Origin: an uncultured Gammaproteobacteria bacterium | GTDB taxonomy: Bacteria; Patescibacteriota; Microgenomatia; Levybacterales; UBA12049 | DNA: 64,000 nt | Direction: 5' to 3' | Assembly (NCBI GenBank): GCA_964416505.1 | Contig: CAYQEJ010000003.1 | Span: 54,034 to 118,033, forward strand | Part shown: positions 24,030 through 45,564 of the stretch, piece by piece | Layout: each line of letters begins with the position of its first letter | Numbering within the stretch: the first letter of the stretch is position 1 | Position numbers and translations under genes: made by a program | The notes under the pieces: generated by a model | The model's input: the letters and a program-made list of their open reading frames with translations, nothing else | What the model was told of the DNA's origin: nothing | The model's database searches: none

Positions 24030-24455
24030 TTATTTAAAACCACTTTTTAGGTTAGTTAAATCAGTTTTTTTAAGATTATATTCGTTAAGTAATTTAGATA
24101 ATTCTGTATTCGCCTCTAAAGTCCTAGATCTATTGGAAAGAAATAAGAAAGAGTCATTTAAATAATCATAACTGAGTTCGAATAGATCGGATTTATAAGG
24201 TAGGCTTCTGATCAATACTCCCAACTGTTTAGGTGCTATTTGAGCATCAGCATCTTTTTGTGTAACACCTAAAGAATCAGTGTGATAAGGTTCTTTTTCT
24301 GTCTCATCAAAGACTGGTGTAGGAGCAATGCTGCTAATATTTTTAGTTTCTTTAGGAAGAACTGTGACCACGATGCTTATAAAAATAAGATAAAAAATTA
24401 TGGCTAAAAATATTAAAAATAGAATCTTATGTTTTTTTAAAAGTTCTTTAATCAT
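24030..24455 (-). CDS. Bitopic membrane protein (N-terminal TM anchor, about 100-aa extracytoplasmic domain); last gene of the T4SS-like operon
   Basis: TM helix ILFLIFLAIIFYLIFISIVVTVL. Overlaps the upstream gene by 8 nt. Its stop is 1 bp from the dnaN stop, so the two are convergent. Confidence 0.5.
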   Translation of the reverse strand: MIKELLKKHKILFLIFLAIIFYLIFISIVVTVLPKETKNISSIAPTPVFDETEKEPYHTDSLGVTQKDADAQIAPKQLGVLIRSLPYKSDLFELSYDYLNDSFLFLSNRSRTLEANTELSKLLNEYNLKKTDLTNLKSGFK

Positions 24456-25224
24456 TTTTTCTTATTGGAACTAATGACATAAACCTCGTGTCATATCTGT
24501 TCATTTGTGTTAGGGACGGGTGATAAATAAAATTACTTGAATTACATTTATCGCTTGCGGAAGCCACTATAAGTGTTTCGTTTTTTGGATTAGCGCCTAG
24601 CACAACAAATGTATGACTACATCTTCCTTCGCATCCGACCCAATTTTCTGCTGAGCCTAGGATATACCACCCTTGATTTGTAAATCTTTGAATTGCTTCA
24701 AGATCAGCTTTAGTCAAATGTCTTCTGTTATCTCTGTCTCTGCCTCCTTCTATAAGATCAACTTGCGCTCTTTTTAACCCTATGCTTCGTAAAAAGACAG
24801 TATCTACAATTGAAAATGGACTAGTTCCTACGTATCCATAAGCATTTCCCGGTTGCCAAGCAAAACCTTTTTCGGTAAATAATTCAGCTACTGTAGCAGG
24901 ATTTGCAACTCCTCGATCACTGGGGCGAGCTTTTAGTCCATAAGTCGCAAGTATCATGGCTATAGATGATGGTCCACAGCCTGAGCTGCCGACCGTACCA
25001 GTATCATAACGATTATTACCCCATGGAGAATCAAATTGACAGTAGTAAACAAAATTCCCGGGTTTTGTACCCGTGCTGGTGTCTCCTCCGAAATCTGATC
25101 CTTTACCAACCACCGTGGTTACAGTGTCGTGAGCTATACCCGTTTGCTGTGCAAAAGCAGGAGACAGAATAATTAAGCTGAGAAGTAAATTAATTAGGAA
25201 AAGAAGAGAGAGGATTTTCTTCAT
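24448..25224 (-). CDS. Secreted papain-like cysteine peptidase (Peptidase_C39_2/CHAP-like), candidate cell-wall hydrolase of the T4SS-like cluster
   Basis: Signal peptide MKKILSLLFLINLLLSLIILSPAFA. YYCQF...SSGCGPSSIAMILATYG contains the candidate catalytic Cys in the C39-like context, and ...CSHTFVVLG contains the candidate His. Confidence 0.55.
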   Translation of the reverse strand: MKKILSLLFLINLLLSLIILSPAFAQQTGIAHDTVTTVVGKGSDFGGDTSTGTKPGNFVYYCQFDSPWGNNRYDTGTVGSSGCGPSSIAMILATYGLKARPSDRGVANPATVAELFTEKGFAWQPGNAYGYVGTSPFSIVDTVFLRSIGLKRAQVDLIEGGRDRDNRRHLTKADLEAIQRFTNQGWYILGSAENWVGCEGRCSHTFVVLGANPKNETLIVASASDKCNSSNFIYHPSLTQMNRYDTRFMSLVPIRKND

Positions 25225-25262
25225 TTAACAATATTTAAGCACAATTGATTTAGTCTTACAAC

Positions 25263-25784
25263 CTAACACCCAGAAGGGAGTGGGTTAAATTGGGAATTTC
25301 TTGGAAAATCATTTGCAGCAAAGGCACCTAGATAAAACCTTACTGGTAAATTGCATAGTCCGTTTTTTGAAAAACCTTGATTAAGTAGATAATTTTCTGC
25401 TTCAGTTTTGGCTAGATCAATGTCTTTTGAATTAATTTCTATTTCGAAGTCATCTAGAGACTCAACGTATTGGATAATAAAATTTTCATTTTGAAAAATA
25501 ACTCCTGATTTGTTGTCTAACGGCGTTAAGATTTTGGCTTTTGCATCTAGGTCTGAAGGAGGAAGTGGCTGTCTAGTAGTTAGTTTTATTAAGGATTTTC
25601 CTAAGCTTCCAGGTTCATAGTTAACAACTGGCTTTGTGTATATTTGCTTCGAAGGGGTAGGTATTGGTTTTTGCGATGATCTTAAGTCGGAAAGAGTAGA
25701 TGCTATAGCAAGTAAAACAAATATTACTACTAAAATAACCGCAGAAATCAGATATATTATATTTTTTTTATTCTTTAAGTTCAT
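25263..25784 (-). CDS. Bitopic membrane protein (VirB8-like topology)
   Basis: N-terminal TM IIYLISAVILVVIFVLLAIA followed by an approximately 140-aa external domain. No sequence motif to confirm a VirB8 fold. Confidence 0.4.
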   Translation of the reverse strand: MNLKNKKNIIYLISAVILVVIFVLLAIASTLSDLRSSQKPIPTPSKQIYTKPVVNYEPGSLGKSLIKLTTRQPLPPSDLDAKAKILTPLDNKSGVIFQNENFIIQYVESLDDFEIEINSKDIDLAKTEAENYLLNQGFSKNGLCNLPVRFYLGAFAANDFPRNSQFNPLPSGC

Positions 25785-25785
25785 C

Positions 25786-28053
25786 TTACCTTATTGTATT
25801 ATATTCACCGTTTGTGCAAAGTTCAGGTGCGCCTCTGCAAACATTGGTTTCGCATTGCCAATAATCGAAATCTAAATTTCTTGGTTCAAGCACGATTTTT
25901 TCTCTGTCTACAGCTACTTGTATTTGTTCTTTCCACTCCACATTACCTCTATTGTAGGCAAGAGGATTGCGGTTGGAGCCCATTTGAAAAGCTCCCCAGG
26001 CTCCTTTGGGATCGGGTGTGCAAACGCTTCCATCGCTATTACATCTAAAATATGCATTGGGTCTATGGCCGCTTTCACATTCAGAAAGTAAGTACCAAAA
26101 TCTATAGTTTTTTGGATCTTTTGACTTAAGTTCATTCCCGAAATCGTTAAGTGTATAGTTGCAGCTTGGGTCTCCGAAATTTCCTTTAGGTGCGTTTACG
26201 GAATTATACTTTCCTGAGCAACTATCTCCAGTAGCAGGAGGTCCTCCGCCTCCAGTAGCGCCTAGAATAGAAATTGACACATCAAAAGTGCTATCGTCTT
26301 GGGGACGAAGAATTAAAGTAAAAGAATACATGGTTTGTTCGCCTGTTTCTGAAGGCGAATTATCCTTTAATCGCCAAGTGATTGCGCTTGAGTTTGTAGG
26401 AGATCTGTATATCCCCGTTGTGCCGCTCGGAATCAAAGTAGTCTCTTCAGGAATATCTGCGCTTACTGAAATATTTTCGATAGGGTCTACTGCATTTCTT
26501 TTATCGTAAATAACGATTATTTCATATCTCAAATCAACGCCATTGGGAGAAGATTGCGGGCCATAAATTGTATAGCTTATTCCTGCATAGCGGCTATTTG
26601 TGATTGGTTTTGTTAGATCTGAAGTGTTAAAGAAGATTTGGCCTATTATCACAAATATAAAGATTATTAGAGCTATTATGATAACAGCTGGTAAGCTAAT
26701 GGTGGTAACCGTAATCCCAATTCCTGTAATAATTTTTGCTAATACTAGAGAAATAACGCTTATCGTGGCAGCGGCTGCACTTGTAGCCACGCCTATTATT
26801 GCAGAAATTGCTGTTGTTAAAAAACCTGCGATGGAAGATAAAAGTGAGCCAAGTATTGATCTTGCAAACAGTCTTTCTAAATATCCAATTGGATCTAAGA
26901 ATTTTTTTAATTTAAAAAACTTTTTGTTTAGGTTCTTAAATCTATTAATTGATTTAGATTTAGACAGACGGTTACCTAGTCTTGTTTTGAAAAATCTTTT
27001 GTATAGCCAGTTTTGATTTTGAGTTGATTGTTGCGATTGGGATTTGCTTTGGTTGGTAGTTTGAGGAGCGTTAGCGAAATTATTTTGCAATACTGGGAGG
27101 GAGGCAGGAATAGGAGAAGTTAATGGCTGTGGTTTCGTAATCTGTGTTGGGGAAGGTTTGTTTCTTCTAAGTAAACGGGATGTGATCCCAGGATTTTGAT
27201 AGGTATATGTTATGTCTTTCTGCCTTTTCCTTTCGATAGCTGATGTTAGCTCTGGGTCATTGTATTGTGCTGCCCATTTTTTTGCATTTTGTGGAGAATA
27301 TGTGACCAGATGTTCTTCAATTTCTTCCTGCGCATTGGAAATTGCTCGTGATCGATCTAAATATCTAGCGCTTGGATCTCTACTATCATAATCTTTTGCT
27401 GTTTTTTCGATATATCTTCGTCTAGTTTCTAGATAATCAGAGTAAGTAAGATTTTTGTTTTCTAGGCTTACTTTCTCAAAAGCCAAGTCGAGTTGGGTAT
27501 TTTGAGGGTCTTTGGAAAGCCATTCGCGTGCCTTTTTAGGATCGGCTCTAACTAATAATTCATGGTATTCCCGTCGTGCTCTTTCATATGCCTCCAGTCT
27601 GCTTTTTGCAACAGGAGCATTTCTTTTTGAGGGATTTTGATTATATCTCCTGTATTCTTCCTCCCACTTTTTTGCAAAATACTCAGCATATCTATCTGCT
27701 TCTTTTTGAGATTCTTCATATGACCCCCCGCGTCTTAAAAGGTTAACACCTGCGATAATAGATCCTAAAGCTAAGCTCTGTGGATTTCTGGGGCTGGAGT
27801 TTTTATCTTTATCTTTTGACTCAATTTCTATATTTGCTCCCTGCGATCGTTGAGTATTTATGTCTTCAATGCCTTGCCAAATTCCTTGAGTATTTAAAAT
27901 CTGATTTTCAAATAAAATTTTTTCAAATGATTGCCTATTTCCAGCTCTAAAAGCATTAAATAATTGATTTTGGTCGAATCTGGATAAATTTCCAAGTTGT
28001 GAGGCTGCCCACTTAGCATTTTCTAGGCTTAATTGTTTCTCGTTTTCATCCAT
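25786..28053 (-). CDS. Polytopic membrane protein with a C-terminal Rpf/transglycosylase-like (lysozyme-fold) domain; VirB1-analogous peptidoglycan hydrolase fused to a channel-like membrane core
   Basis: 755 aa. About 390 aa of cytoplasmic Q/S/R-rich N-terminus, then at least 3 TM helices (residues about 395-470). The Cys-rich external C-terminus ends with LLSECESGHRPNAYFRCN...KGAWGAFQMGSNRNPLAY...WKEQIQVAVD...WQC, matching the CESG...G.FQ...EQI.VA...W..C pattern of Rpf-type transglycosylase domains. Confidence 0.5.
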   Translation of the reverse strand: MDENEKQLSLENAKWAASQLGNLSRFDQNQLFNAFRAGNRQSFEKILFENQILNTQGIWQGIEDINTQRSQGANIEIESKDKDKNSSPRNPQSLALGSIIAGVNLLRRGGSYEESQKEADRYAEYFAKKWEEEYRRYNQNPSKRNAPVAKSRLEAYERARREYHELLVRADPKKAREWLSKDPQNTQLDLAFEKVSLENKNLTYSDYLETRRRYIEKTAKDYDSRDPSARYLDRSRAISNAQEEIEEHLVTYSPQNAKKWAAQYNDPELTSAIERKRQKDITYTYQNPGITSRLLRRNKPSPTQITKPQPLTSPIPASLPVLQNNFANAPQTTNQSKSQSQQSTQNQNWLYKRFFKTRLGNRLSKSKSINRFKNLNKKFFKLKKFLDPIGYLERLFARSILGSLLSSIAGFLTTAISAIIGVATSAAAATISVISLVLAKIITGIGITVTTISLPAVIIIALIIFIFVIIGQIFFNTSDLTKPITNSRYAGISYTIYGPQSSPNGVDLRYEIIVIYDKRNAVDPIENISVSADIPEETTLIPSGTTGIYRSPTNSSAITWRLKDNSPSETGEQTMYSFTLILRPQDDSTFDVSISILGATGGGGPPATGDSCSGKYNSVNAPKGNFGDPSCNYTLNDFGNELKSKDPKNYRFWYLLSECESGHRPNAYFRCNSDGSVCTPDPKGAWGAFQMGSNRNPLAYNRGNVEWKEQIQVAVDREKIVLEPRNLDFDYWQCETNVCRGAPELCTNGEYNTIR

Positions 28054-28055
28054 AT

Positions 28056-29999
28056 TTACTTATTTTGGTCAAAATCAGAGAAGCCAGGTGCAATTTGCGG
28101 CGTCTGCGGAGGAACAAAACCTGATTGATTCATGGGACTAATGGGCGCTGGGTTTTGGTAGGGTGCTGAAAAAGAAGTCTCATTCATTATTCTTTGCTCC
28201 TCCTGTCTTCTTAAAAGTTCTTCTGGATTTGAAGTAATAATCTTGTGTTCAAACGGAGCAGATATCACTTTCATGGAAACATGACTTTGTCCTGCAAAAA
28301 ATAAACCCTCTCCGACGTTTGCTGATAAAAGTAGTTGTTTTTCCTGCTGTGTTAAATAGAAAATTTGAGACACTAAATCTATCTCAGTAGGGCTTTGTTT
28401 TAAAAGCATCTGAATGGACGAGTTTGAAAGAATTGCCTTTCCATAATCGGTGGAGAGAAAGTCCTGAACATCCTGGGTAGCTGTTGTTAGTGCAAGATAA
28501 TATTTCCTAGCTCTTTTAGCTATTCCATGGATGAAAGAGGCAGAGTCTTGGTATTTCATAAGGTACCAGGCCTCATCAAGCACTAATAGTCTTTTTTTAA
28601 GATCTTTTCTAACTCTCGTCCAAATGAAATCAAGAATTATATGCATAGCCACGGGGCGAAGCTGATCTTCGAGTCCTCTAGTTGAAAATGCAGTGAATGG
28701 ATTTTTTATATCAAAGTTTGATTGTTGGTTAAAAATTCCAGCCATGCTTCCTTTTATAAATTTCTCAAGCCTTAGTGCTAGGTTTTTAGAAATTTCATCC
28801 TCGTTTCCCAAGAGAACTTTATATAGATCTTCCATGAGAGGAGGCTTCTTTGTTTGTGTAGATGGGTCTGGTGTAATTCCTTTTTGCCTGTAAACTTCTA
28901 CTAATGCTCGATCAAGAATTGCGTCATGCGCTGCATCAAGTTCTCCCATAACGATTCTAAGAAGAGCATGGAGCGAAAGGATTTTTAATCCTAATTCATT
29001 TTCTCCTTGTTCATAGATACCAGATAAGTCGAATGGATTAATCTTGATAGGAGAGGCGGGGGTGAACTCAATATATTCTCCGCCGAGGGTTCTCGTGAGT
29101 TCCCCATATTCTCCTTCAGGATCAATTACTATGATTTCAGCGCCAAACATAAACTGTCGCATAAGCTCCAGCTTGATAAGGTAAGATTTTCCTGCTCCAG
29201 ATTTTCCGAAAACCACTTCGTTTGCATTTTCTAGAGAGTATCTGTCAAAAATGATTAATGAATCATTTAGCTTATTTAGTCCATACATTACTCCTTTATC
29301 TTGGGTGAGAGTGGCAGATGTAAACGGAAACGTTGAAGCGAGGGAAGTGGTGTCCATGTTTCTGGTCAAGAATAATTGATCGTCTGCAATTGGAATGCTT
29401 GATTTAAAACCAGCATCCATTTGAAGGGTTGCGGGTTTAGCTAGGACAAGAATTGAAGCCAGAAGTGTTTTGAGTCTTTTTGATGCCTCTTCAAGGTCCT
29501 CTTTTGTATCAGATATTAATGTAATGTAAAGGCTAAATTGAAAAAATCTTTCTATTCCCTTTGCGAGTTCTTCCTGTACCGAAAGTGCGTCTTCTAGAGA
29601 AGCTTGGACGGTAGGATCTAAGACTTTATTATTCTGTGTTTGTTCCATAAGGGTTGCTTCCATTTCGCCAATTTTTCTTCTTAGATCTTGGAGGGCATCT
29701 GGTGAAGATGTGGGATAGCAGAACATAGAAAGATTTAGTGAATGTTCAAAATCAATAAGAGGTTCAAGCCAATTAGGTGAAACAAATCTGGGGTATCCCA
29801 CAACGAAAAAAGTTTTGTGATATTTTTCTCCAATTCTAATATGCCCAAAATCAACTTCGATAGAAGAAGGGGCTATGATATCCGTAACAGAATTCATGCC
29901 TCTTTCGATTCTTTTTATTCCCTCATTTGCAGGGTGAATCGCTGCGCCAGGAATAGGATTAGTTTTTAAGCTTTGATCTTTTTTGTTAAATAGTTTCAT
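28056..29999 (-). CDS. VirB4/TrbE/CagE-family type IV secretion ATPase
   Basis: 647 aa, no N-terminal TM. N-terminal CagE_TrbE_VirB-type region (IAPSSIEVDFGHIRIGEKYHKTFFVVGYPRFVSPNWLEPL). Walker A VFGKSGAGKSYL, Walker B LLVLDEAWYLM, and C-terminal LTTATQDVQDF, typical of VirB4. Confidence 0.75.
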   Translation of the reverse strand: MKLFNKKDQSLKTNPIPGAAIHPANEGIKRIERGMNSVTDIIAPSSIEVDFGHIRIGEKYHKTFFVVGYPRFVSPNWLEPLIDFEHSLNLSMFCYPTSSPDALQDLRRKIGEMEATLMEQTQNNKVLDPTVQASLEDALSVQEELAKGIERFFQFSLYITLISDTKEDLEEASKRLKTLLASILVLAKPATLQMDAGFKSSIPIADDQLFLTRNMDTTSLASTFPFTSATLTQDKGVMYGLNKLNDSLIIFDRYSLENANEVVFGKSGAGKSYLIKLELMRQFMFGAEIIVIDPEGEYGELTRTLGGEYIEFTPASPIKINPFDLSGIYEQGENELGLKILSLHALLRIVMGELDAAHDAILDRALVEVYRQKGITPDPSTQTKKPPLMEDLYKVLLGNEDEISKNLALRLEKFIKGSMAGIFNQQSNFDIKNPFTAFSTRGLEDQLRPVAMHIILDFIWTRVRKDLKKRLLVLDEAWYLMKYQDSASFIHGIAKRARKYYLALTTATQDVQDFLSTDYGKAILSNSSIQMLLKQSPTEIDLVSQIFYLTQQEKQLLLSANVGEGLFFAGQSHVSMKVISAPFEHKIITSNPEELLRRQEEQRIMNETSFSAPYQNPAPISPMNQSGFVPPQTPQIAPGFSDFDQNK

Positions 30000-30643
30000 A
30001 TTTTCATTTTTCCAGTAACCATGGGAGTTATGATATCTTTGGATACTCCCGAGCTGCTTTCGTTGTTATAGATCTCATAAAAAAGCCTAATTAGTTCGTC
30101 TTTTTCCAAAATTTTTGATTTCAAACCGGATCTTAAAAGCTCTTGGATTATAGATGAAGATTTGGAAGTTAATAAATTTTTTGCATCTCTTATTATCGCA
30201 TCTCTGTCTCTTGAGTTTGCAATTCCTCCAGCTCCTTTTTCAAGATACGAGTACGAAATGGAGATATAAAATTTTTTATCAAGAACTGTATTTTTTTGAA
30301 CAAGTTGAGAAACGAATTCTTTATACATTCTAATGTGTTCTGAGAATGTTGGGTTAGATGCTTTCGCAGCTTGTTCCTCGAGTAGTTTTTGATAATTACT
30401 GATATCGAGTTTTCTGCTCAAAATTACTATTTGAATAGGAAAAGATAGGGAGTTGATGAGCGAAGCATAAGAGAGAATTTTTATTTCTTGTTCTTCTTTG
30501 GATTGTAATGCAAAATTTGTCGCTGTAACTTCTATAACCATACACACACTTCCTCCGGACATAAGAACTAGGCTGTCTATAATGTCCTCAATCTCTATAA
30601 ACTTTTGTGTTGTCGCTATGGTTTTTGGGGCAGAGTTTTTCAT
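29996..30643 (-). CDS. Hypothetical cytoplasmic protein (215 aa) translationally coupled between the VirB3-like and VirB4-like genes
   Basis: No TM or signal. Overlaps the VirB4-like start by 4 nt and abuts the upstream gene. No recognisable family. Confidence 0.45.
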   Translation of the reverse strand: MKNSAPKTIATTQKFIEIEDIIDSLVLMSGGSVCMVIEVTATNFALQSKEEQEIKILSYASLINSLSFPIQIVILSRKLDISNYQKLLEEQAAKASNPTFSEHIRMYKEFVSQLVQKNTVLDKKFYISISYSYLEKGAGGIANSRDRDAIIRDAKNLLTSKSSSIIQELLRSGLKSKILEKDELIRLFYEIYNNESSSGVSKDIITPMVTGKMKI

Positions 30644-31942
30644 TTAATTAAATAATTCCCTTCTTAATTCTTCCCTGGGATCTACTGAAAAAATTTCAAG
30701 CGGCATAATTGGTGTTCCGTTCGCTTCAATTTCCACGGTGTCAAACTTATTTTGTCCTTTTGGATCTTCAATAGAAACTATGTATTTCCCGTTTTGAAGA
30801 GAAGTTGCCGATGCAAATTGCCCAAGCCCATTTGTTTTAAAAGCTCTCACTGGATTGTCTTCTGGATCTTTTACCTCGACTAGAATATTTGGTAGGGGAT
30901 TCCCTCTAGGATCTTTAATGATCCCAGTTATTAGATTTGGATCTGCGGGAGCTGTGGGGAGGCCAACGCTTTTTACTAATGCAGGAGGGGCTTTTCTAAC
31001 TCTTTGGGTCTGGGGAAGAGGTTGTGCCGTAATTGGATTAAATTTCGTTTTTTCTGTTCCTTCAAGTCTAGCCTTAAGAGATAATAATTCTTTCTCAAGC
31101 GCCTCCTTTTGTCTGTTTGCTTCGATAAGCATTTTCTCAAGTTCTTCTGATTTTTGATGAGTAGTTGAGTCTGTTTGAGGAGTTGAGTTATTTTCTATAG
31201 CTTTTGCTTCAACAAGCTCTTTCTGAAGTGCGGAAACTTGTTCTTCGAGTTTTCTTTCATTTTCTTCTATTTTTTCTTCCTCCTCTTTTTCTTTGATTTT
31301 TTCAAGATCATCAAGATTCCCAGACATAATAGGTTTATTGTTGGGATCATTTAATTCGATTACTCTGCCTGGGACCTGAGTTATAGGAGTGTTTATTTGT
31401 GGTGCGCTCTGTGGCTGCGGAGCAGGAACAGGTTGAATGATTTGGGCTTGTGTTTGGATCGGGGTTTGTTGGATAGGTTGTTGATAGTTGATGGGGGTTG
31501 GTGTTTGTATCTGTGTTTGTGTTTGTAAAGGCATATTGGTAGGTGGTAGTGGAGCAGGTGTGTTAAGTTGAGGAGGAGTTGATTGGAGTACAGGATTTAA
31601 TGGTGTTTGTGGGGCACTAGGATTCATTTGTGAGAGATTTCCACCAGTTTTTCTATAGATATATTGGGTAGGGGAGAAAAGAGCTCTAATGAAATTTCCA
31701 ATCATGGTATCCATAGGTCTTCCGTCAATAGGAACAAACGCTAATGCAACACCAAGAGAGAGAAATAATACTGCTAAGGGGAGTCTAATCAGTATAAATA
31801 TCGGTAAGATAAAAAATATAAACCAGGCAATTACTGTTCCACCGGCAAGGTAGGCAAACTGCTTTACGGTCATGTTGCCAATAAGTTTAAATTGAAATCC
31901 TGTAATGTCTTGTGGTATTGGATGGTTTTCCATAGGCAGCAA
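30644..31942 (-). CDS. PrgI/VirB3-like two-TM N-domain, followed by a P/Q/T-rich linker, a coiled coil and a C-terminal beta-sandwich (carboxypeptidase-regulatory-like) domain
   Basis: The N-terminal 100 aa are MLPMENHPIPQDITGFQFKLIGNMTVKQFAYLAGGTVIAWFIFFILPIFILIRLPLAVLFLSLGVALAFVPIDGRPMDT, a hydrophobic hairpin as in PrgI/VirB3-family proteins that precede VirB4. The C-terminus IKDPRGNPLPNILVEVKDPEDNPVRAFKTNGLGQFASATSLQNGKYIVSIE is Big/CarbopepD_reg-like. Confidence 0.45.
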   Translation of the reverse strand: MLPMENHPIPQDITGFQFKLIGNMTVKQFAYLAGGTVIAWFIFFILPIFILIRLPLAVLFLSLGVALAFVPIDGRPMDTMIGNFIRALFSPTQYIYRKTGGNLSQMNPSAPQTPLNPVLQSTPPQLNTPAPLPPTNMPLQTQTQIQTPTPINYQQPIQQTPIQTQAQIIQPVPAPQPQSAPQINTPITQVPGRVIELNDPNNKPIMSGNLDDLEKIKEKEEEEKIEENERKLEEQVSALQKELVEAKAIENNSTPQTDSTTHQKSEELEKMLIEANRQKEALEKELLSLKARLEGTEKTKFNPITAQPLPQTQRVRKAPPALVKSVGLPTAPADPNLITGIIKDPRGNPLPNILVEVKDPEDNPVRAFKTNGLGQFASATSLQNGKYIVSIEDPKGQNKFDTVEIEANGTPIMPLEIFSVDPREELRRELFN

Positions 31943-32070
31943 AATAAATACAAATAAGAGCTCTTTGCTTCATACTAGAATATAACGTGAAAAATAGCGT
32001 TTCAAGGCTATCAAAATGAATCAATTTTTGAGGATTTTGAAGCTAATTGTGAAAACAACTTTTTAGACAC

Positions 32071-32700
32071 TTAATTTTGACAAGTGTAGATTATATCTCC
32101 CGCATGATTAAGCTTTTTGCATGTTCTGTTAAGAGCACAGTATCCATGAGGATGCGCTTCGCTGCAAGGAAATTGGCATGTGTAGTGACTACCTGTATCG
32201 TTTGGCACGCAGATTCTACCCGTAGGGCATATTCCGTCCGGATGTTGATTGTTGCATCTATAAGCGACGCTATCGGGAACACATTGATCAAATCCAAATG
32301 TTGAAATGCAGGCGTTTACTCCAGTTAGTCTTATTATGAAAGGTAATATTATTACTGATAATAAAATTAAGGTTAATCCCAAAATAGAAAAAGTAAGTGT
32401 TTTTTTGGCCCCATCTGCTTTTTTTGCATCACCTCCAGAGCTAACAAATTTAAATCCGGAAATTATAATCATGGCTACTGCGACAATTCCTGCGAAAATA
32501 AACACCCAGTAAATTACGTTTCCTAGGATAATTGGTAGGCAGTTAAGCGTTGCTACCTGGTTCGATCCGCCAGTTAGACATCCAGATCCTCCAAGAGGGG
32601 TAAAATTTGCAGCAAAAACATTTGGGGTGAAAAAAAGAAATCCAGAAATTAACAAAAAGAAAAATAAAAACTTTTTCACTGATAAATAAAAGCGTAACAA
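32071..32700 (-). CDS. VirB2/TrbC-like pilin paralog 1 with a Cys-rich C-terminal extension
   Basis: Signal peptide, hydrophobic helix, loop SGFKFVSSGGDAKKADGAKK, second hydrophobic helix, then a 75-aa tail containing 11 Cys. Confidence 0.5.
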   Translation of the reverse strand: MLRFYLSVKKFLFFFLLISGFLFFTPNVFAANFTPLGGSGCLTGGSNQVATLNCLPIILGNVIYWVFIFAGIVAVAMIIISGFKFVSSGGDAKKADGAKKTLTFSILGLTLILLSVIILPFIIRLTGVNACISTFGFDQCVPDSVAYRCNNQHPDGICPTGRICVPNDTGSHYTCQFPCSEAHPHGYCALNRTCKKLNHAGDIIYTCQN

Positions 32701-32721
32701 AGAAGATGTTAAATTACAAGA

Positions 32722-33141
32722 TTAACGAGGAGCTACTAGTGTAGGGAGAGTGAAGCTGCTGTTAAGTAGGCTTCCGATTCCGAAGAATTGTAATGCGAGG
32801 TTGATGATGAAGTAGGAAAGAAATACTAGTACTAATCCTACCAGTGCAGCTACGATCATTCCTCTTGCAGCATCTACTTTTCCTTTATCTCCACCTGATG
32901 TAATCCATTTAATTCCACCATATACTAGAAAACCTAAAGCTAGCAATACAGCCACTATAAATAATAGAAGAATTATTGAAGAAACTAGTGGGCCAATTCC
33001 TGCGTTACCCATATTGCAAAGAGTTGTAAATCTTCCGCCTACGCAGAGATCAAGTGTACCGCCACCTACAGCAGCAAAAGTTTTAGGGGTAAACGTTAAG
33101 AAAGAAGCGATCGATAACGATAGAGCAGTTAATTTTTTCAT
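32722..33141 (-). CDS. VirB2/TrbC-like pilin paralog 2
   Basis: Signal peptide ...TFA|AVGGG, TM1, loop WITSGGDKGKVDAARGMIVAA, and TM2. This is the classic conjugative-pilin topology. Confidence 0.55.
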   Translation of the reverse strand: MKKLTALSLSIASFLTFTPKTFAAVGGGTLDLCVGGRFTTLCNMGNAGIGPLVSSIILLLFIVAVLLALGFLVYGGIKWITSGGDKGKVDAARGMIVAALVGLVLVFLSYFIINLALQFFGIGSLLNSSFTLPTLVAPR

Positions 33142-33195
33142 TACTTATTTGATCGTATTGTGTTTTTAATTGTTTGTCAAGTACCTTTTCTGAAT

Positions 33196-33513
33196 CTAGA
33201 CTATTTGTCCAATTCCTAAAAACCAACCTAAAACATTTATTATCAAAAAAGAGGAAAGAGCAACTAGAAGTCCTATAACTGCATATGTAATTTTTTTTCT
33301 TGCAGCGTCTACTTTTCCTTTATCTCCACCTGATGTAATCCACTCAATGCCTCCCCAGACAAGAAAAGCGAGTGAGGCGAGTGTTATTAATACAAAAGCC
33401 CAGGTAAGACCATTTGTAATTACGTTTTTAAGAGTATTGAGGCCGCCTGTGGGCATCCCTGCGACAGGTTCTATAGAATATGAGCCGGGTAAGTTAAATG
33501 CAATTTTTTCCAT
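33196..33513 (-). CDS. VirB2/TrbC-like pilin paralog 3
   Basis: Shares the near-identical loop WITSGGDKGKVDAARKKITYAVIG with paralog 2, and has two flanking hydrophobic helices. Confidence 0.55.
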   Translation of the reverse strand: MEKIAFNLPGSYSIEPVAGMPTGGLNTLKNVITNGLTWAFVLITLASLAFLVWGGIEWITSGGDKGKVDAARKKITYAVIGLLVALSSFLIINVLGWFLGIGQIV

Positions 33514-34517
33514 TATCTCCCAAATCCTGGTAATCCTAGAATATCACGAGTTATTAATTCAAGTATAACTAAAGAAAATATAATAAATATAAATCCTACT
33601 ATTGCTGCCGTAAGCTGTTCTCTGGCATTTTTTACCTTATCAGGATCACCTTGGGATGTCATAAGTTTGTATCCGGCGACCAAGATTATTATGAATATTA
33701 TTCCGCCTCCAATACTTAAAACAAATCCAAGTGCCCATCTGGTAAAGTCAGTTGCTCCAGTGCTAACCATTCCAAATGCTGTTCTGACTCTTAAACATCC
33801 GCGCGCGTCATTATAGAAATTTCCATTTTTTTCGCAAGGTAAAGATAGAGGAGCATTCTTGGCATAATTTATGACTGAAGGATCATACAGGCTTCCGGCT
33901 ACGCATGTGCCTGTTCTACAGTCTCCTGTGGTAAGCGAATTGCAATAAAAACCCTCAGAGCACGTTCCCCTTACTCTCCCTCCTTTAGAACAGATTTTAT
34001 AATCGTTTGATGTTGGATCTATTTCGCAAGAATTATTTTGTCCTGGGCCCGTGGGTTCAGGGGAAGGATTTTGACCACCAGCCGTCCTAACTACTATGCC
34101 ATTGCTTCTGCAGGATGGTTGACAAGTGCCGTCTTCTTTGTAAACGCAGAGTCTAACCGTATATGTGCCAGCGCCTAAATTTCTTAGATCTCCTAGGGTA
34201 TGATCAGTCTCGCTAAATGTAACACCTGAATCTGGGTTTATAAGAATATCTTCAGATACGCATCCTTCTTGAAATTTTCCAGCTTTTGTTAATGAATCAA
34301 GAGGGCATGGGCCAGTATTTGAAGTATTAAATGCTACATAAAGACGTGTTCCTGCATCGCGGATATTGGTGAACGTAATGCTTTTAAATTTTCCTACTTG
34401 AAGTTGAGTGGGATCAGTCGTAAAAGTACAAGCATCATCTGGCCCGGCATATGCAATGGTAGTTTTTAGAGCGAAAAAAGCAATGAAAATTAACAAGGGA
34501 AAAATTATTTTCCTCAT
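33513..34517 (-). CDS. Secreted Cys-rich domain protein with a C-terminal VirB2/TrbC-like pilin module (paralog 4)
   Basis: Signal peptide, then an approximately 230-aa Cys-rich extracellular domain, then a pilin-like TM1-loop-TM2 with a degenerate MTSQGDPDKVKNAREQLTAAIVGF loop. Stop and start overlap with paralog 3. Confidence 0.5.
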   Translation of the reverse strand: MRKIIFPLLIFIAFFALKTTIAYAGPDDACTFTTDPTQLQVGKFKSITFTNIRDAGTRLYVAFNTSNTGPCPLDSLTKAGKFQEGCVSEDILINPDSGVTFSETDHTLGDLRNLGAGTYTVRLCVYKEDGTCQPSCRSNGIVVRTAGGQNPSPEPTGPGQNNSCEIDPTSNDYKICSKGGRVRGTCSEGFYCNSLTTGDCRTGTCVAGSLYDPSVINYAKNAPLSLPCEKNGNFYNDARGCLRVRTAFGMVSTGATDFTRWALGFVLSIGGGIIFIIILVAGYKLMTSQGDPDKVKNAREQLTAAIVGFIFIIFSLVILELITRDILGLPGFGR

Positions 34518-34552
34518 AATTTTATCGTAGGCAAAACTAGAATTAATTGCAA

Positions 34553-35875
34553 CTATGGAGTGAATTTGAATCCGCGGCCTTTAACTGTTTGGATATGTGT
34601 TGGGGAAGAAATGTCTTTTTCAATTTTCTTTCTTAGTCTAAAAATAAGTTGATCTAAAGCTTGCTCTGTAACCCCGGCAGTAGAGGATAAATCGCCCCAA
34701 ACTGAGGATATGATTTCGTCTCTTTCAACTATTTTTTCAGGATTTAAAATAAAAAATTTAAGTAATTTAAACTCTGAAGAAGTAAGTCCTTCAGACAAAA
34801 CTATTTCGCCAATTCTAATTTCCTTAGCCGCTTCATCAAATATTATCTTTTCTTGTTTTTCGGAAATTTCTTTTTTAGCAAATTCTTCCAAGAGAGGAAC
34901 TGCAAATTTATTATTTTTAATAAGTCCTACAGCCACTAAATGAGATGATTCAGAAGCTTTTTTATTTGCGATTAGACTTTGTTCGTATGGAGAGAGAGAA
35001 TTCCAGATTTCGTAAAGAACTGATTTTACTTTAGAATTATTTTCTAAAAATTCTCTGACATCATCTTTTTTATCATTTAAGATACAGGCTTCAATGCTAA
35101 CAAGCCATAATTTACCTAATTCTCCTGTTAATTCACTAATCTTTTCAAGCGTTTTTTTATCCACATTTTTTCCACTATTTTTCTTTAGATAATCAAGTCT
35201 AAATTGTTGAATTTTTTCATCTCCTAGAGATAGGTAAACTAAATTTCCTGTTAAAAATTCATAAAAGGAAGTAATTATTTCATTTCCTGCGGTTTCTTCT
35301 AATGGCCGAGAAAGAGGAAATATGCAGGAAAAACGATATTTTGCTCTATCTCTCAATACTCTTAAGTTATCAAAGAAGATAGGCTCAAGTACTCCAACGT
35401 ATTCTTCGAATCTATCAAAAAGTAGAACTATAGTTAATTCTTTTTCAAGACATAAATAGTCAATCGTTTTTTTTAGACCCTGGAAGATCACAAGTTCATC
35501 GCCTGATTTTAGACTCTCATCAAATATTTTTTTAAGAGCTTTATGCTCTTCGTTCATTTTTCTCTCCGCTAGAGAATCCAAGATTTCCAAAAACATATAC
35601 TTTGTAGATTCGGAAAGTGGCCTTTTTTTAATTTCTGCAAAATTCATCATTACGAAATGAAACCACTTTGTGTTTTCTTTAAGGTGAAGTTCGCGAGCTT
35701 TTGAATTGTATGCGAGAATTCTTAAGATGTTTGATCTTCCAACTCCTGGAAGAGAAATTACCTGAGCAGAATTTCCAACTCTTACAAAAGAAAGAATTTT
35801 CTCTATCTCAGAATATCTTGCGTCTTCAGGGTAAAGTGATTCGAAGTGTTTTGGTTCCATAGCTAGGTAAAACAA
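34553..35875 (-). CDS. Transcriptional regulator: N-terminal STAND/AAA-like ATPase domain, C-terminal OmpR/PhoB-type winged helix (Trans_reg_C)
   Basis: P-loop-like VISLPGVGRSNILRIL. The C-terminus ERDEIISSVWGDLSSTAGVTEQALDQLIFRLRKKIEKD....IQTVKGRGFKF matches the Trans_reg_C/CadC wHTH consensus. The domain order is the reverse of SARP/AfsR regulators. Confidence 0.55.
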   Translation of the reverse strand: MFYLAMEPKHFESLYPEDARYSEIEKILSFVRVGNSAQVISLPGVGRSNILRILAYNSKARELHLKENTKWFHFVMMNFAEIKKRPLSESTKYMFLEILDSLAERKMNEEHKALKKIFDESLKSGDELVIFQGLKKTIDYLCLEKELTIVLLFDRFEEYVGVLEPIFFDNLRVLRDRAKYRFSCIFPLSRPLEETAGNEIITSFYEFLTGNLVYLSLGDEKIQQFRLDYLKKNSGKNVDKKTLEKISELTGELGKLWLVSIEACILNDKKDDVREFLENNSKVKSVLYEIWNSLSPYEQSLIANKKASESSHLVAVGLIKNNKFAVPLLEEFAKKEISEKQEKIIFDEAAKEIRIGEIVLSEGLTSSEFKLLKFFILNPEKIVERDEIISSVWGDLSSTAGVTEQALDQLIFRLRKKIEKDISSPTHIQTVKGRGFKFTP

Positions 35876-35939
35876 TTGTAATTGTTTTATAAGGTTTATA
35901 TCAAGCTCAGATGCCTTATTTTTTCTAAACTAACGCCAT

Positions 35940-38900
35940 ATGACACACGAAATAATTATGAGACCAGGTGAATTGACAGTGCAAAGGGGACAATCTACAC
36001 TGAATAAGGAGCAAAGTATTTTTATGCCAGACGCAGGAATACAAACAGAAGGAGTTCAGCCAGTAAAACCAGCTATTAGAGCTGAGGTTTTACCTTTACC
36101 TAGAGTAACAACCAGCTTGTCTTTGGAAGGACTAACCCCGACTCAGCGTGCTGACGCTTTAAGGACAACAAGGCTTCTCGAAGGGCTCGGTTTGAAGCCT
36201 GACCAAGTTACTTCCAAAGGAAGAACAGAGCAAAAAGCAGGTCAAGTTGTTGAGAATGCACAGCTTGATAGTGAAAATCCGGAAGCATCAACTAAATCGC
36301 AGGAAATTTTAGGAAAAGGAGAATTAACAGATCAGGATAGAGCTGATCTTTTTGGATTAAACGCTGGTAGAATCGCAAAAGCAGAAGAGCTACTTAAAGA
36401 TAGTCTCGGAAGAGAATTAACTGATAAAGAAAAAGAAGGAATCTTACGCGCTCATTTTGTGGGAGCAGGGGAAAAAGGAAAAAACGGAGAAGAATCCGGA
36501 GTGTTTAATGTAACACGAGAGCAGCTTTCGGAAAAAGCAAAAATATTAAAAGATGCTGGATTTGATCAGGAGCAAAGAAGGGAAATCATAGAATCAGGTC
36601 TTACTCAAATGAATCCACCACAGCCTCTTACTCCTCTGGAGGCTAGAAACCAGGCAATTCTGGCCTTAGGGAATTTAACATTAACTGGAAAGCTTTTGGA
36701 AATCAGAGATAACATTTTAAGACTTCATAATGCTGCAATTGGAAATCCAGCTGCAGGTATTCCCGTGATTAATCCAGATGGTATTACCTCTGACGCACTA
36801 ACAGCGCTTCATAGAGAATTTTATAATAAATTTAATAAAGTACTTAATAATCCAAATACACCACCGCCACCCGAAGTTCTTCTTTTTGAAAGAAGACTTA
36901 AAGAAATTGGTGATCTTGATGCAAGAACACACGAGCAGCGTGGTCCACAAGAAGATTTCCATAATGAATATGATTTCATTAGGCTGCAATTGAATAGTAC
37001 TCCTCAATTATTGCCCAATGGAGCTCCAAATCCCCAGAGGGCAATTTTGGAAGAAGAGTTAGTTTTGAGTGTAGAAAATTTTGTGGGACATGGCATAAAC
37101 CCATCCAGTGATAGTATTTATGACTCTACTCTTAAAAAAATAGTGCAAACTGATACTTTGGTAAGTGATCCTGATCTTCAGGCAAGAATTCAGTCATCTG
37201 TTCAGAGGTTGGTTATTAGAATTGTGGGAATGCCACTTCAGGACGATGTGGGAGATTTTGATATTGGGTTTTATGGTGGAATTAATTTTTCAGCAATTAA
37301 AAATTTACTTTATTCACAGTCATTGGATCCTGCATATTTTAGATCTCAGCAAGAATACAATGCCTTTAGCAACTTGAGAAGAGACCAGAACTTAAGCGTA
37401 GAAGGTCTGTACCATTCTATGAGAATAGTTCATGAAATCAATAAAATGATTGTTCAGAATCAGCTTGATGCAGCAAATCAATCGGCTCCAAACTTAGGTC
37501 CTGAAGCACTGCAAATGCTTGCCAAGACAAAAGGTGCTGGCGCGATATTTAGAATTATGGAATCTGGTCTTTTGGAACTATTGGCAAAAGATGGATACAT
37601 GGCAAAGGGTTCGTATGATGCTCTGATGGGCAAGGCAATGAGTCAACAAACTGGAAGATATGATAATTCTCAAACGTCATCGATAGCTTCACAAGTTAAA
37701 GAAATGATTAGCGCTTTAAGATCATTGCCTCCTGGTATTATTCAGGCAGGAGATTTACAGGAGTTAAGAGACATGGAAAATTGGGAAATTGATTTAGCAT
37801 TTAATCTTGGAAGAAATATGTATAACGTTTTACATAGGTCTGCGGAGCTGGCTTCATGGGGAAGGCTTCCGAAAGGACTCAAGCTTTACACAAATTCTGT
37901 TTTTGGAGGATTTAGAAATATTTATAATCCTGCCCTTCATGTTATAGAAAGGTTTAAGCCCGGCGAAGGTAGAGGAGGATACAGATTATTCCAGATGTTT
38001 ATGGATGCGATGCAAAGACGAAGAGAAAGAGAGGGATTTGGTCATATGGGGCTTAAAAAACTTCATGGAGATTTAATTAAGTATTTTGAACTGCCTTCGA
38101 TTGCAGGTATGAGAGGGTATGTCTCATCTTGGAAAGCGAACGAAGGAGTTCTTAAAGTAATCGAAACCGGTTACGCTCCAAGAGGTAGATTTGCAGATCT
38201 AGATATATTTTCGCAAGTACAACTTAGAGAAGCAGGTTCTCAGATTTTTGATAGAAATGGAGGGGTAATTACTGGAAAAGGAATTGGATATTTCCTGGAT
38301 GTAGATGCTCTTACTTTTAAAGATGGTCAAGGGAGAACATATTCATGGAAAGATTTTTCAGATGCTGAGCAAGCTGATTATTATAGATCAATTTTCTTTG
38401 AGCCAAATACAGGTGGACATGGTCATGATCCAGTGTTAAAAAGAGATATAAACATAGGATTGGGAACTCTTTATAAAACAGCACTTGGGCCAGCAGGGGG
38501 ACATGAAGCACATAAAAATCATCATCATTTAAATGAGGTTAAAGAAGAAATAAGGCGTCTTATCTGGGAAAGAGTAGGAGCGGATAATCCCCTTGCAGTT
38601 TTACCGTATCTACATAGGCTTGAATTTAGTGGTGATCATAAACCAGTTGATGTGGGCCATCACGGGACGCCGCACTTAGTAGATGTTGCAGGCACAAAAT
38701 TGCTTGAAGATATTTATGATAGGCCTGGTTGGCAAGATTTTCAAGTGAAGCTTATGCTTCTAAATGAATGGAGAATGTCAAAAATTAAACAAGGAAATAC
38801 TAATTACACATTGCAGGACGCAATAAATGAAATGGATACAGCAATGGGTGTTCAAAGAGATCCTGTGACCCATGCAATTATTCAGGGGGGAAATCAAAGC

Positions 38901-39653
38901 CTAAATCTTAGTGGGGATGAATATGCATGGTATCAGGAGATAGCAAGAGGTGCGAAATTAGCTTCAGCAGATATGGCAAATGTAAGATTTGGATTTGTGG
39001 CTTTCGCAAACGATCTCCCACTGGAGCAATTTAACTTTGAGGTTTTAGGTGACAACTCTTATCAGAGGCATTTTGGCGATATTGTACAGATTAACAGTTC
39101 AACGGGGGCTATGATAGAGGCATTCGATAATTTGGGAACAGTAAAAGATTATCATGGAATAGTTGAGATTGTGGCAAAATTTGAAAAAGGTATAACGGCT
39201 GTGCATGGAGATGGTGCAGCTAAGGATAAAGCTGCTCCGTTGGTTGAGGCAATTACAAGATTTTTCAGGAGAGGAGAAAATGGCGGCTCAAAGAGTCATA
39301 AGGATGAAAATGAAAAATCTTTTTCTGAAAAAGCTAAGCGTTATTTTAGGCAATGGGATGAAGTTCATGGTCTACTTCAGCAATTTCATAAGGCTAATTC
39401 TATCGCACAGCAATTTTACAACGTTGAGGCATTAGCTCTTGATAGGCATCAATTGTATATGCTTCAGGAAGAGCTTATGGCAAATGGTCTCATGGGGCAT
39501 GATCAAGAAGAAGAGTTCAGGGAAAGATTCGGAGGATTCTTAGGATTTATTAATAGAATGTTTATTGAGCAATTTAGTAGGCTTTTGAAAGTTACATCTC
39601 TAATCACTACGAGAAACTTACTGGGTAGTTCATTTAAGGGTATAGGTCAATAA
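35940..39653 (+). CDS. Giant hypothetical protein (1237 aa), no signal peptide or TM, no recognisable catalytic motif; candidate cargo or effector of the adjacent T4SS-like apparatus
   Basis: Single uninterrupted ORF. GC visibly higher than neighbouring genes. No HUH relaxase motif, no Walker motifs. Divergent from the regulator gene and convergent with the VirB6-like gene (stops 4 bp apart). Confidence 0.55.
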   Translation: MTHEIIMRPGELTVQRGQSTLNKEQSIFMPDAGIQTEGVQPVKPAIRAEVLPLPRVTTSLSLEGLTPTQRADALRTTRLLEGLGLKPDQVTSKGRTEQKAGQVVENAQLDSENPEASTKSQEILGKGELTDQDRADLFGLNAGRIAKAEELLKDSLGRELTDKEKEGILRAHFVGAGEKGKNGEESGVFNVTREQLSEKAKILKDAGFDQEQRREIIESGLTQMNPPQPLTPLEARNQAILALGNLTLTGKLLEIRDNILRLHNAAIGNPAAGIPVINPDGITSDALTALHREFYNKFNKVLNNPNTPPPPEVLLFERRLKEIGDLDARTHEQRGPQEDFHNEYDFIRLQLNSTPQLLPNGAPNPQRAILEEELVLSVENFVGHGINPSSDSIYDSTLKKIVQTDTLVSDPDLQARIQSSVQRLVIRIVGMPLQDDVGDFDIGFYGGINFSAIKNLLYSQSLDPAYFRSQQEYNAFSNLRRDQNLSVEGLYHSMRIVHEINKMIVQNQLDAANQSAPNLGPEALQMLAKTKGAGAIFRIMESGLLELLAKDGYMAKGSYDALMGKAMSQQTGRYDNSQTSSIASQVKEMISALRSLPPGIIQAGDLQELRDMENWEIDLAFNLGRNMYNVLHRSAELASWGRLPKGLKLYTNSVFGGFRNIYNPALHVIERFKPGEGRGGYRLFQMFMDAMQRRREREGFGHMGLKKLHGDLIKYFELPSIAGMRGYVSSWKANEGVLKVIETGYAPRGRFADLDIFSQVQLREAGSQIFDRNGGVITGKGIGYFLDVDALTFKDGQGRTYSWKDFSDAEQADYYRSIFFEPNTGGHGHDPVLKRDINIGLGTLYKTALGPAGGHEAHKNHHHLNEVKEEIRRLIWERVGADNPLAVLPYLHRLEFSGDHKPVDVGHHGTPHLVDVAGTKLLEDIYDRPGWQDFQVKLMLLNEWRMSKIKQGNTNYTLQDAINEMDTAMGVQRDPVTHAIIQGGNQSLNLSGDEYAWYQEIARGAKLASADMANVRFGFVAFANDLPLEQFNFEVLGDNSYQRHFGDIVQINSSTGAMIEAFDNLGTVKDYHGIVEIVAKFEKGITAVHGDGAAKDKAAPLVEAITRFFRRGENGGSKSHKDENEKSFSEKAKRYFRQWDEVHGLLQQFHKANSIAQQFYNVEALALDRHQLYMLQEELMANGLMGHDQEEEFRERFGGFLGFINRMFIEQFSRLLKVTSLITTRNLLGSSFKGIGQ

Positions 39654-41262: not shown

Positions 41263-41337
41263 TAATTTAAGTTTGATCCATTTTCACTTTTATGTCAAGT
41301 TGGCTTCAAGCTCAAAAGCTGGTAAAATATATAGAGT

Positions 41338-41424: not shown

Positions 41425-41425
41425 C

Positions 41426-43864: not shown

Positions 43865-43943
43865 TTTTGCTTATAAACTAAGCGCATTATAGATTTGAGA
43901 CAGAAAACAAGCTTGATATTTACCTTATAAGAAATTTATAAAT

Positions 43944-44910: not shown

Positions 44911-44912
44911 AA

Positions 44913-45002: not shown

Positions 45003-45005
45003 GTG

Positions 45006-45559: not shown

Positions 45560-45564
45560 TTATG

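Follow-up and report, generated by a model that had tools for sequence, protein, structure and literature searches.

The 64,000-nt stretch of contig CAYQEJ010000003.1 analysed here (the window) holds, next to a type IV secretion system (T4SS)-like cluster, a gene for a 435-aa regulator, and the reading that we favour, if with some reserve, is that its product is a one-component transcription factor of a Levybacteria/Microgenomates clade, in which a STAND module would serve as a non-hydrolysing scaffold and the protein would bind triple repeats. The regulator and a conserved 31-bp element beside it make up a concrete and testable regulatory pair for the T4SS-like cluster of this lineage. The study also gives the first domain assignment for the N-terminal region of ~335 aa in a family of at least 940 cluster representatives, which is labelled only "winged helix-turn-helix". 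Moreover, the regulator is a STAND module found in nature whose three nucleotide-site signatures have all given way to a fixed alternative set, and its pocket can help to explain how non-catalytic scaffolds evolve from STAND switches.

Domain architecture of the regulator

The sequence-only reading of this DNA had proposed a protein with an N-terminal STAND/AAA ATPase and a C-terminal OmpR-type winged helix. With the fold searches and the transitive homology to relatives that match nSTAND1 or AAA_16, we hold this architecture, an N-terminal STAND/AAA+ fold followed by an OmpR-type winged helix, with high confidence. For the C-terminus the sequence matches are direct: the Pfam model Trans_reg_C (PF00486), whose absence would by that reading's own criterion have refuted it, matches residues 364-438 of the 440-aa open reading frame (ORF) with 70.5 bits (cutoff 26.2, E 1.3e-19) and is also found in all 35 of 35 family members. 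Among PDB sequences the effector domains of PhoB, OmpR, RegX3, KdpE and CadC are matched (PhoB 1gxp with E 2.7e-10), and the winged helix can be superposed on the solved OmpR, PhoB and KdpE effector domains. Pfam detects no receiver (Response_reg) domain in the regulator, and the response-regulator models of NCBIfam match by their C-terminal ~90 positions only, far under their cutoffs, which again means a protein without receiver domain. The recognition helix, GVT[DE]QALDQ[LI][IV][FY]RLRKKIE in consensus, is near-invariant wherever the 31-bp element occurs, and two relatives from Chloroflexota (L054 and L055) have another recognition helix and no copy of the element. A covariation test of the recognition helix against variants of the motif was dropped, the helix being too invariant.

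For the N-terminal module the evidence is of another kind. Residues 1 to ~335 have no match in Pfam, NCBIfam or PDB sequences, and AAA_16 or NB-ARC, expected by the sequence-only reading along with Trans_reg_C, are thus missing from the Pfam result of the regulator itself; because direct searches gave no match, the module was assigned only by fold comparison and a deep profile search. The AlphaFold model of the regulator, built on 35 family sequences, is confident (pLDDT 89, pTM 0.81), and fold searches find in it a P-loop NTPase core as in AAA+/STAND proteins, with first a helical lid and then a winged-helix domain behind it. As read from the DSSP string, the nucleotide-binding domain extends to residue ~210, the lid occupies ~215-261 and a small helical/hairpin winged-helix-like domain ~268-332. 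Past residue ~335 the model holds the OmpR-type domain only, and no sensor repeat domain was detected, since neither the regulator nor the 35 homologues match a repeat family (TPR, WD40, LRR, SUPR).

The first search returned 940 cluster representatives of the family, the 120 best of which are more than 50% identical over the full length. Those members that carry an organism name belong to Levybacteria or the "Patescibacteria group", with an annotation that goes no further than winged helix-turn-helix protein, and the closest relatives are found in metagenome-assembled genomes (MAGs) of Candidatus Levybacteria/Levyibacteriota. When a profile of the N-terminal domain only (A2) was searched against 1.84 billion representatives with E up to 1e-3, 1098 proteins were found, mostly 430-470 aa long. 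Trans_reg_C is present in 39 of 40 distant proteins found in this way, and their N-terminal domains match nSTAND1 (21/40, best E 7e-11) and AAA_16 (19), with further matches to AAA_22, NPHP3_N, nSTAND2, NACHT, AAA_35 and ATPase_2; AAA_35 is weakly matched in 6 of 35 close homologues as well. The STAND membership of the regulator rests on this transitive homology, as it has no N-terminal Pfam match of its own. The clade is part of a wider uncharacterised family which joins a STAND-type oligomerisation module to a C-terminal OmpR/PhoB winged helix.

Remodelled nucleotide pocket

The motif GVGRSN, pointed out earlier as P-loop-like, does lie at the beta-strand/loop/helix spot where the AlphaFold model has its P-loop, but Arg42 replaces the Walker A Lys. 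In the family consensus the loop reads IGLPGVGRSN, which fits GxxGxGK[ST] except for the Lys-to-Arg exchange, and the Walker B strand and the lid read hhhhFDRFEE and LTGGHGKL. We counted the pocket residues in the 120 closest homologues. At the Walker A Lys position R occurs in 119 and K in one, P0051, while several more distant clade members also keep Lys; the Walker B +1 position, that of the catalytic Glu, has R in 110 and K in 10 and never E, and the GxP proline position has G in 117 and never P. G39, G41, D149, R170, R172 and K174 are invariant in the same set, S43 (118/120) and R185 (114/120) are near-invariant, and the positions E152/E153 and N184/R185 (sensor-1/Arg-like) are conserved.

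The full-length relatives L054 and L055, with the same architecture at 22-24% identity, show what these columns hold elsewhere: GLSNMGKS and GAASMGKS at Walker A, LLLDEFDE and FILDEFDE at Walker B, and TGGHPGL and SGRHPGL at the lid. For 115 representatives of the wider family the counts are K 77, R 22 and I 12 at the Walker A Lys position, R 40, Q 31 and E 20 at Walker B +1, and P 34, A 31 and G 23 at the GxP proline. By these alignment counts at three positions, the canonical catalytic set is lost recurrently in the wider family and the loss is fixed in the Patescibacterial clade.

In P-loop NTPases, hydrolysis is normally lost when Arg takes the place of the Walker A Lys and the Walker B glutamate is missing, while binding may persist. 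The regulator probably lacks canonical ATPase activity, and with none of three residues in place (Walker A Lys, Walker B Glu, lid Pro), a switch driven by ATP hydrolysis appears unlikely; the claim of an ATP-dependent switch in the sequence-only reading is doubtful for the same replacements, fixed clade-wide. On the other hand, the strong constraint on the replacement residues argues for a functional pocket, not a relic.

A triple-repeat element in the divergent control region

As called mechanically, the ORF of the regulator opens with a TTG and covers 440 codons of the minus strand (34553..35875). However, the true start is most likely the ATG at 35860, because the 100%-identical database protein P0001 has 435 aa, the homologues begin their alignment together at MExxHFESLYP, and the best -10-like hexamer on this strand, TACAAT (35880-35875), overlaps the TTG at 35875. 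The intergenic region common with the divergent 1237-aa gene would therefore measure 79 bp, instead of the 64 bp (35876-35939) supposed from the longer ORF; the layout supposed with it, a regulator gene divergent from the 1237-aa gene and upstream of the pilin genes on the same strand, is confirmed by the ORF arrangement and Pfam. The region contains a conserved -10-like box TAAACT, 8 nt before the ATG of the 1237-aa gene, and a block CAT..GCAGTTTAAG conserved in relatives.

Direct repeats had been suggested for this shared promoter region, and a conserved triple-repeat element was indeed found there. In the alignment of DNA upstream of the regulator its consensus is CTTGATAT-N4-CCTTACAA-N4-nTTACAAT over 31 bp, with CCTTA[CT]AA also seen in the middle part, so that it consists of three hexamers, TTGATA, TTACAA and TTACAA, whose starts are 12 and 11 bp apart. 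A position weight matrix (PWM) of 31 columns was made from 14 training instances. Only two sites in the 64 kb reach 12 bits, the highest value that ten shuffled versions of the window gave, and they lie at 35875-35905 and 43912-43942. In 710 kb of related sequence (53 loci), 41 hits of at least 18 bits were obtained, about one per locus, versus 0 in 20 shuffled sets. Outside the PWM training, the best hit of the locus lies at most 720 nt upstream of the regulator and on its strand in 21 of 35 loci; where the distance is 400-650 nt, a PF05635 (23S_rRNA_IVP) gene is inserted between. By itself CTTGATAT is not enriched in the window (6 observed versus 3.7 expected).

The position of the element is informative in two groups of loci. 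In distant lineages (L046, L048, L052, L045, L050) the whole element stands further upstream of a separate TATAAT in variable register, and since it slides in this way it seems to behave as distinct from the core promoter. In loci where the regulator gene is inverted, the best copy (31.6 bits in L021, 15.6 in L023, 11.1 in L028 and 10.8 in L042) stays in the short gap at the start of the large divergent gene, divergent to it; the element would therefore belong to the control region between this gene and the pilin string, not to the 5' end of the regulator gene as such. Domains of the SARP and OmpR types are known to engage promoters via direct repeats of 11-bp spacing over the -35 region and spacer (PMC10936776). 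Taken together, the alignments tip the balance modestly towards the 31-bp element being the operator of the regulator.

The second copy of the window lies between the start of p812 (43864) and the stop of p113 (43944), and points away from p812 into the 3' end of p113. In L022 an extra copy at 2110 lies upstream of the p534 homologue, and L005 has one at 2177, both in the p534/p812 module. As another operator candidate we considered a 20-bp perfect palindrome, AAAACAATT-GT-AATTGTTTT (35869-35888), which covers the third repeat and the -10-like box; it was rejected because the closest loci, L002 and L006, do not conserve it, and is probably an incidental by-product of the third repeat.

Proposed mechanism and its alternatives

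In the mechanism that we propose, the STAND module would stand in for the receiver domain of an OmpR/PhoB response regulator. The regulator would self-associate, constitutively or under control of a ligand or partner through the remodelled pocket, and by analogy with OmpR/PhoB and SARP proteins at least two winged-helix domains would be set head-to-tail on the repeats spaced by 11-12 bp. Such an oligomerisation scaffold, constitutive or ligand/partner-controlled, would probably work without an ATP hydrolysis cycle, although the conserved pocket may still hold nucleotide or another phosphorylated ligand. Binding at the element would then bring about autoregulation and regulation of any co-transcribed pilin genes and of the 1237-aa gene. 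This is predicted because the element overlaps or abuts the -35/-10 boxes of the regulator gene and the -35 position of the 1237-aa gene, the latter being occupied by the first repeat. The second site (43912-43942) would extend the control to the p812/p534 module. As to the sign of regulation, the overlap with -35/-10 in the window suggests repression and the -35-replacing arrangement in distant loci suggests activation.

Several points weigh against this mechanism. The assignment of the candidate operator to the regulator rests on adjacency and repeat geometry, and in the window and close lineages the outer hexamers are at the same time the -35-like and -10-like boxes of the regulator gene (18-nt spacer), so part of the conservation could be that of a promoter. 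In six loci the inverted regulator gene no longer has the element before it, and autoregulation is therefore not universal. Nucleotide binding and even slow hydrolysis may occur, because Arg can contact phosphates and Ser43 and Asp149 are retained. Finally, in the PWM scan of the window no element of at least 12 bits was found upstream of the pilin genes, PrgI or p534, and promoter-like boxes of their own are present at pil334 (TTGCAA-17-TACGAT-6-ATG), pil139 (TTGACA-17-TACGAT-10-ATG) and p534 (TTGACA-17-CAAACT-7-ATG). Control of the whole apparatus, as the sequence-only reading had it, would with the element missing there and these separate boxes present need either indirect effects or read-through from the regulator's promoter, for which no terminator is predicted in the 35-bp gap between the regulator gene and the first pilin gene.

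The short distances of these boxes are an observation in their own right. In several cluster genes (34518-34552, 33142-33195, 41263-41337, 35921-35939; TAAACT-8-ATG for the 1237-aa gene) the -35/-10-like boxes end 6-10 nt before the ATG without a Shine-Dalgarno sequence, which hints at leaderless or near-leaderless mRNAs.

Other explanations have to be weighed against the non-hydrolysing scaffold. The version put forward from the letters, a catalytically active STAND switch in which ATP binding and hydrolysis toggle DNA binding and directly switch on the whole T4SS-like apparatus, agrees with the STAND/AAA+ fold, with the conserved glycine scaffold, Ser43, Asp149, E152/E153 and N184/R185, with the Lys kept in P0051 and several more distant clade members, and with the small gaps in the gene string; in AfsR, too, autoinhibition is relieved by ATP binding (PMC10936776). 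Nevertheless it seems rather unlikely in view of the exchanges Lys to Arg (119/120), Glu to Arg or Lys (120/120) and Pro to Gly (117/120) in a clade whose same-architecture relatives are canonical, and in view of the missing operator-like element before the pilin genes, PrgI and p534 and the individual promoter-like boxes at several cluster genes. A different question is raised by the element itself, which might be the lineage's strong promoter for the gene pair or the site of another factor, with the regulator binding different targets. In close relatives, as in the window, TTGATA-18 nt-TACAAT forms a good sigma-70-type promoter, and the element remains with the large divergent gene when the regulator is inverted. 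This explanation, however, does not account for a conserved middle repeat in the spacer, which ordinary promoters do not conserve, nor for an element that slides relative to a separate TATAAT in distant lineages and is near-unique per locus (two in 64 kb; 41 in 710 kb, with nearly all of them at a single position). Its three repeats, spaced by 11-12 bp, fit the geometry of OmpR/SARP sites (PMC10936776). The regulator is also the sole protein with a DNA-binding domain detected by Pfam and NCBIfam in the conserved cluster, and we think it improbable that the element serves as promoter or foreign site only.

It is a still more distant prospect that the remodelled, strictly conserved pocket (GRSN / DRFEE / GGHGK with R170, R172 and K174) binds no ATP at all and has turned to sensing either a different ligand or a partner protein, with the co-conserved 1237-aa protein relaying, for instance, a signal from host contact or from the envelope; the regulator would then be a new nucleotide-independent STAND switch coupling epibiont-host contact to expression of the pilin/T4SS apparatus in candidate phyla radiation (CPR) bacteria. 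Much less probable again is a role in an NTP-dependent conflict or defence system like those of other nSTAND proteins. Distant relatives do match nSTAND1/2 and NACHT, one (L055) lies right after a TCAD9-CHAT protein and others have TIR, kinase or TCAD9 domains, but PADLOC gives no match for the regulator or four unannotated neighbours at E up to 0.01, the Patescibacterial clade is linked to pilin and VirB4 genes rather than to effector domains, and the output domain is a DNA-binding winged helix. We give hardly any credence to an ORC/Cdc6-like replication-origin protein, which would likewise combine AAA+ and winged helix and which the position ~11 kb from dnaA/dnaN brings to mind: the winged helix is of OmpR type, not of Cdc6 type, the protein has degenerate nucleotide motifs, each locus has one or two sites and not arrays of origin boxes, and the gene is linked to the pilin cluster, whose own place in Patescibacteria is known to be near oriC (PMC12102498).

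Genomic context and synteny

The sequence-only reading had placed the regulator at a T4SS-like cluster, and this is borne out by the window and by synteny in ~43 of 53 related loci. The string downstream of the regulator gene (Table 1) comprises, in order, four T4SS pilins, a PrgI/VirB3-like protein, a split VirB4, a 755-aa, a 173-aa, a C39-like peptidase and a 141-aa protein; past its end dnaN and then dnaA follow on the opposite strand (21251-24028), ~11 kb from the regulator. Pfam finds a VirB4-like ATPase with the TraG P-loop/AAA_10 domain. The VirB4 gene is apparently split into ORFs at 29996-30643 (-) and 28056-29999 (-) with a 4-base overlap: the 215-aa ORF p215 (29996-30643) matches positions 98-281 of NCBIfam VirB4_plasma, and the next ORF holds the TraG P-loop/AAA_10 ATPase part. 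The PrgI/VirB3-like protein (30644-31942, -) is extended: it carries a long low-complexity linker rich in P/Q/T and a coiled-coil-like stretch rich in E/K, and has a CarboxypepD_reg-like beta-sandwich domain at its C-terminus. No match was found for the 1237-aa protein in Pfam, NCBIfam, PDB sequences or PADLOC, nor for the 534-aa, 812-aa and 755-aa neighbours in Pfam, NCBIfam or PADLOC.

VirB4, PrgI/VirB3 and VirB2-like pilin arrays near dnaA characterise the Patescibacterial MPF-FATA-like T4SS cluster, and pilin arrays with dnaA proximity are reported for Microgenomatia (PMC12102498). The cluster of the window is such a chromosomal, origin-proximal T4SS-like cluster with pilin arrays of Patescibacteria. 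The same source describes a T4SS-like pilin cluster that is common across Patescibacteria and that Saccharimonadia need for epibiotic growth; no regulator, winged-helix, OmpR-type or AAA protein is mentioned there, and the only regulatory idea is gene dosage from origin proximity (PMC12102498). The regulator is hence a neighbour of the T4SS cluster and not a described component of it (PMC12102498).

Synteny was surveyed by tblastn of the window neighbours against 53 full-length regulator loci. The order p534, large divergent ORF, regulator, pilin array, PrgI, p215 and VirB4 is found in nearly every locus with enough flank, and pilin genes adjoin the regulator in ~43 of the 53. The large divergent ORF keeps its length (~1240 aa in L003, L008 and L021), while its sequence changes quickly (21-58% identity). 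Six loci (L021, L023, L028, L035, L037, L042) have only the regulator gene turned round with respect to the pilin array and p534. The inverted gene converges on the conserved element, which indicates a recurrent or ancestral single-gene inversion in an otherwise fixed order. Since Chloroflexota relatives are not beside T4SS genes (L054 lies among MutL-like, URO-D and oxidoreductase genes), the T4SS linkage, as judged from these loci, is specific to the Patescibacterial clade.

Some further observations concern the loci and their surroundings. In L055 (Caldilineaceae, canonical Walker motifs) the relative lies right after a TCAD9+CHAT protein and a 1638-aa receiver-GAF-histidine kinase (L055 5588-7975, 709-5625), and with the TIR, kinase or TCAD9 domains of other family members this suggests an ancestral family in NTP-dependent conflict or signalling systems. 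Genes for PF05635 (23S_rRNA_IVP / bAvd-like) four-helix bundles stand repeatedly beside the regulator in relatives, between the element and the gene or just after it, which suggests that the small gene found here is mobile or has been acquired more than once. Many third-party annotation (TPA) MAG contigs with the cluster (L001, L002, L004-L006 and others) are titled "uncultured Gammaproteobacteria bacterium" and one "Bacteriovorax", where the records almost certainly give the wrong taxon. Four tRNA-Ser genes (TGA, GGA, CGA, GCT) and one tRNA-Arg gene are scattered through the upstream part of the cluster (41338-46839), and a Lamin-tail-domain protein (45693-46670) and a tmRNA gene (49052-49441, -) were also noted.

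Table 1. Features of the regulator locus, with positions in the window unless a related locus is named
Feature	Position	Strand	Basis
Regulator gene, 435 aa	34553..35860	-	ORF call; 100%-identical 435-aa database protein P0001; 940 homologues
N-terminal STAND/AAA+-type module, aa 1-335	34856..35860	-	
Walker A-like loop ISLPGVGRSNI, aa 34-44, Arg42 at canonical Lys position	35729..35761	-	Alignments A1 and A3
Walker B-like strand IVLLFDRFEE, aa 144-153, Asp149 invariant, Arg150 at catalytic-Glu position	35402..35431	-	Alignments
Lid motif LTGELGKL, aa 244-251, corresponding to STAND GxP motif with Pro to Gly	35108..35131	-	Alignments
OmpR/PhoB-type winged-helix DNA-binding domain, ~aa 337-435, recognition helix GVTEQALDQLIFRLRKKIE	34556..34852	-	
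Divergent control region, common to regulator and 1237-aa gene	35861..35939 (79 bp)	.	Sequence
Element CTTGATATAAACCTTATAAAACAATTACAAT, hexamers TTGATA / TTATAA / TTACAA, candidate operator	35875..35905	-	PWM 39.5 bits
Second element copy CTTGATATTTACCTTATAAGAAATTTATAAA, inverted orientation, 48-78 bp upstream of p812 start codon	43912..43942	+	PWM 28.3 bits
1237-aa divergent gene	35940..39653	+	ORF; partner of control region, conserved
Downstream gene string	24030..34517	-	Pfam, NCBIfam, synteny; gaps <=128 bp
Four PF18895 T4SS_pilin genes	33513-34517, 33196-33513, 32722-33141, 32071-32700	-	Pfam
PF05635 insertions	L003 7433-7972; L008 7557-7928, 9394-9780; L021 9327-9707; L023 9363-9740		Pfam

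Comparison with known systems

The name "reverse-SARP" given to the protein in the sequence-only reading does not hold. A SARP is defined by an N-terminal OmpR-type DNA-binding domain directly before a BTA domain (PMC10936776), whereas the DNA-binding domain of the regulator is C-terminal and no BTAD match exists in the regulator or 35 homologues even at E up to 1; the analogy lies only in the logic of the DNA sites, which for SARPs are direct repeats 11 or 22 bp apart beside or overlapping the -35 region (PMC10936776). The large SARPs, such as Streptomyces coelicolor AfsR with its OmpR-type DNA-binding domain, BTA domain, nucleotide-binding oligomerisation domain (NOD) and TPR repeats, are alike in combining an OmpR-type winged helix with a STAND NOD, and their target repeats, ~11 bp apart over the -35/spacer (PMC10936776), resemble the candidate element with its 12 + 11 bp. 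They differ in domain order, which is reversed in the regulator, in their BTA domain and TPR sensor, in length (993 aa versus 435 aa), in phylum, and in the Walker A, Walker B and GxP motifs that are substituted in the regulator. MalT/LAL-type STAND factors share the N-terminal position of the NOD, but carry a C-terminal LuxR helix-turn-helix in place of the OmpR-type output; in the regulator no sensor (SUPR/TPR) was detected and the pocket is non-canonical. By analogy, the regulator may work most like these MalT/LAL-type and AfsR-type STAND transcription factors.

The OmpR/PhoB response regulators, VirG included, have a DNA-binding domain homologous to that of the regulator (the VirG model matches with E 5.8e-9, under its cutoff) and likewise use direct-repeat boxes at promoters. 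VirG regulates the virB T4SS operon of Agrobacterium. The regulator, in contrast, lacks a receiver domain, no gene for a cognate histidine kinase lies close by, and control of its dimerisation would come from the STAND module, not from phosphorylation; the analogy with VirG is one of function only. The archaeal Walker-type ATPases PAB2304 (2qen) and SSO1545 (2fna) and ORC/Cdc6, deposited as Walker-type or AAA+ ATPases, lack the OmpR-type domain and share 13-14% sequence identity. The closest true relatives are the nSTAND1/AAA_16 plus Trans_reg_C proteins of Chloroflexota and other phyla (for example L054, L055, P0169, P0183), full-length homologues of the same architecture, which differ in their canonical GKS / DE(Q)FD / GGHPGL motifs and their recognition helix, and have neither T4SS linkage nor a copy of the 31-bp element. 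The clade of the regulator is a variant within the known STAND-type transcription factors, neither a SARP nor, lacking a receiver domain, a response regulator.

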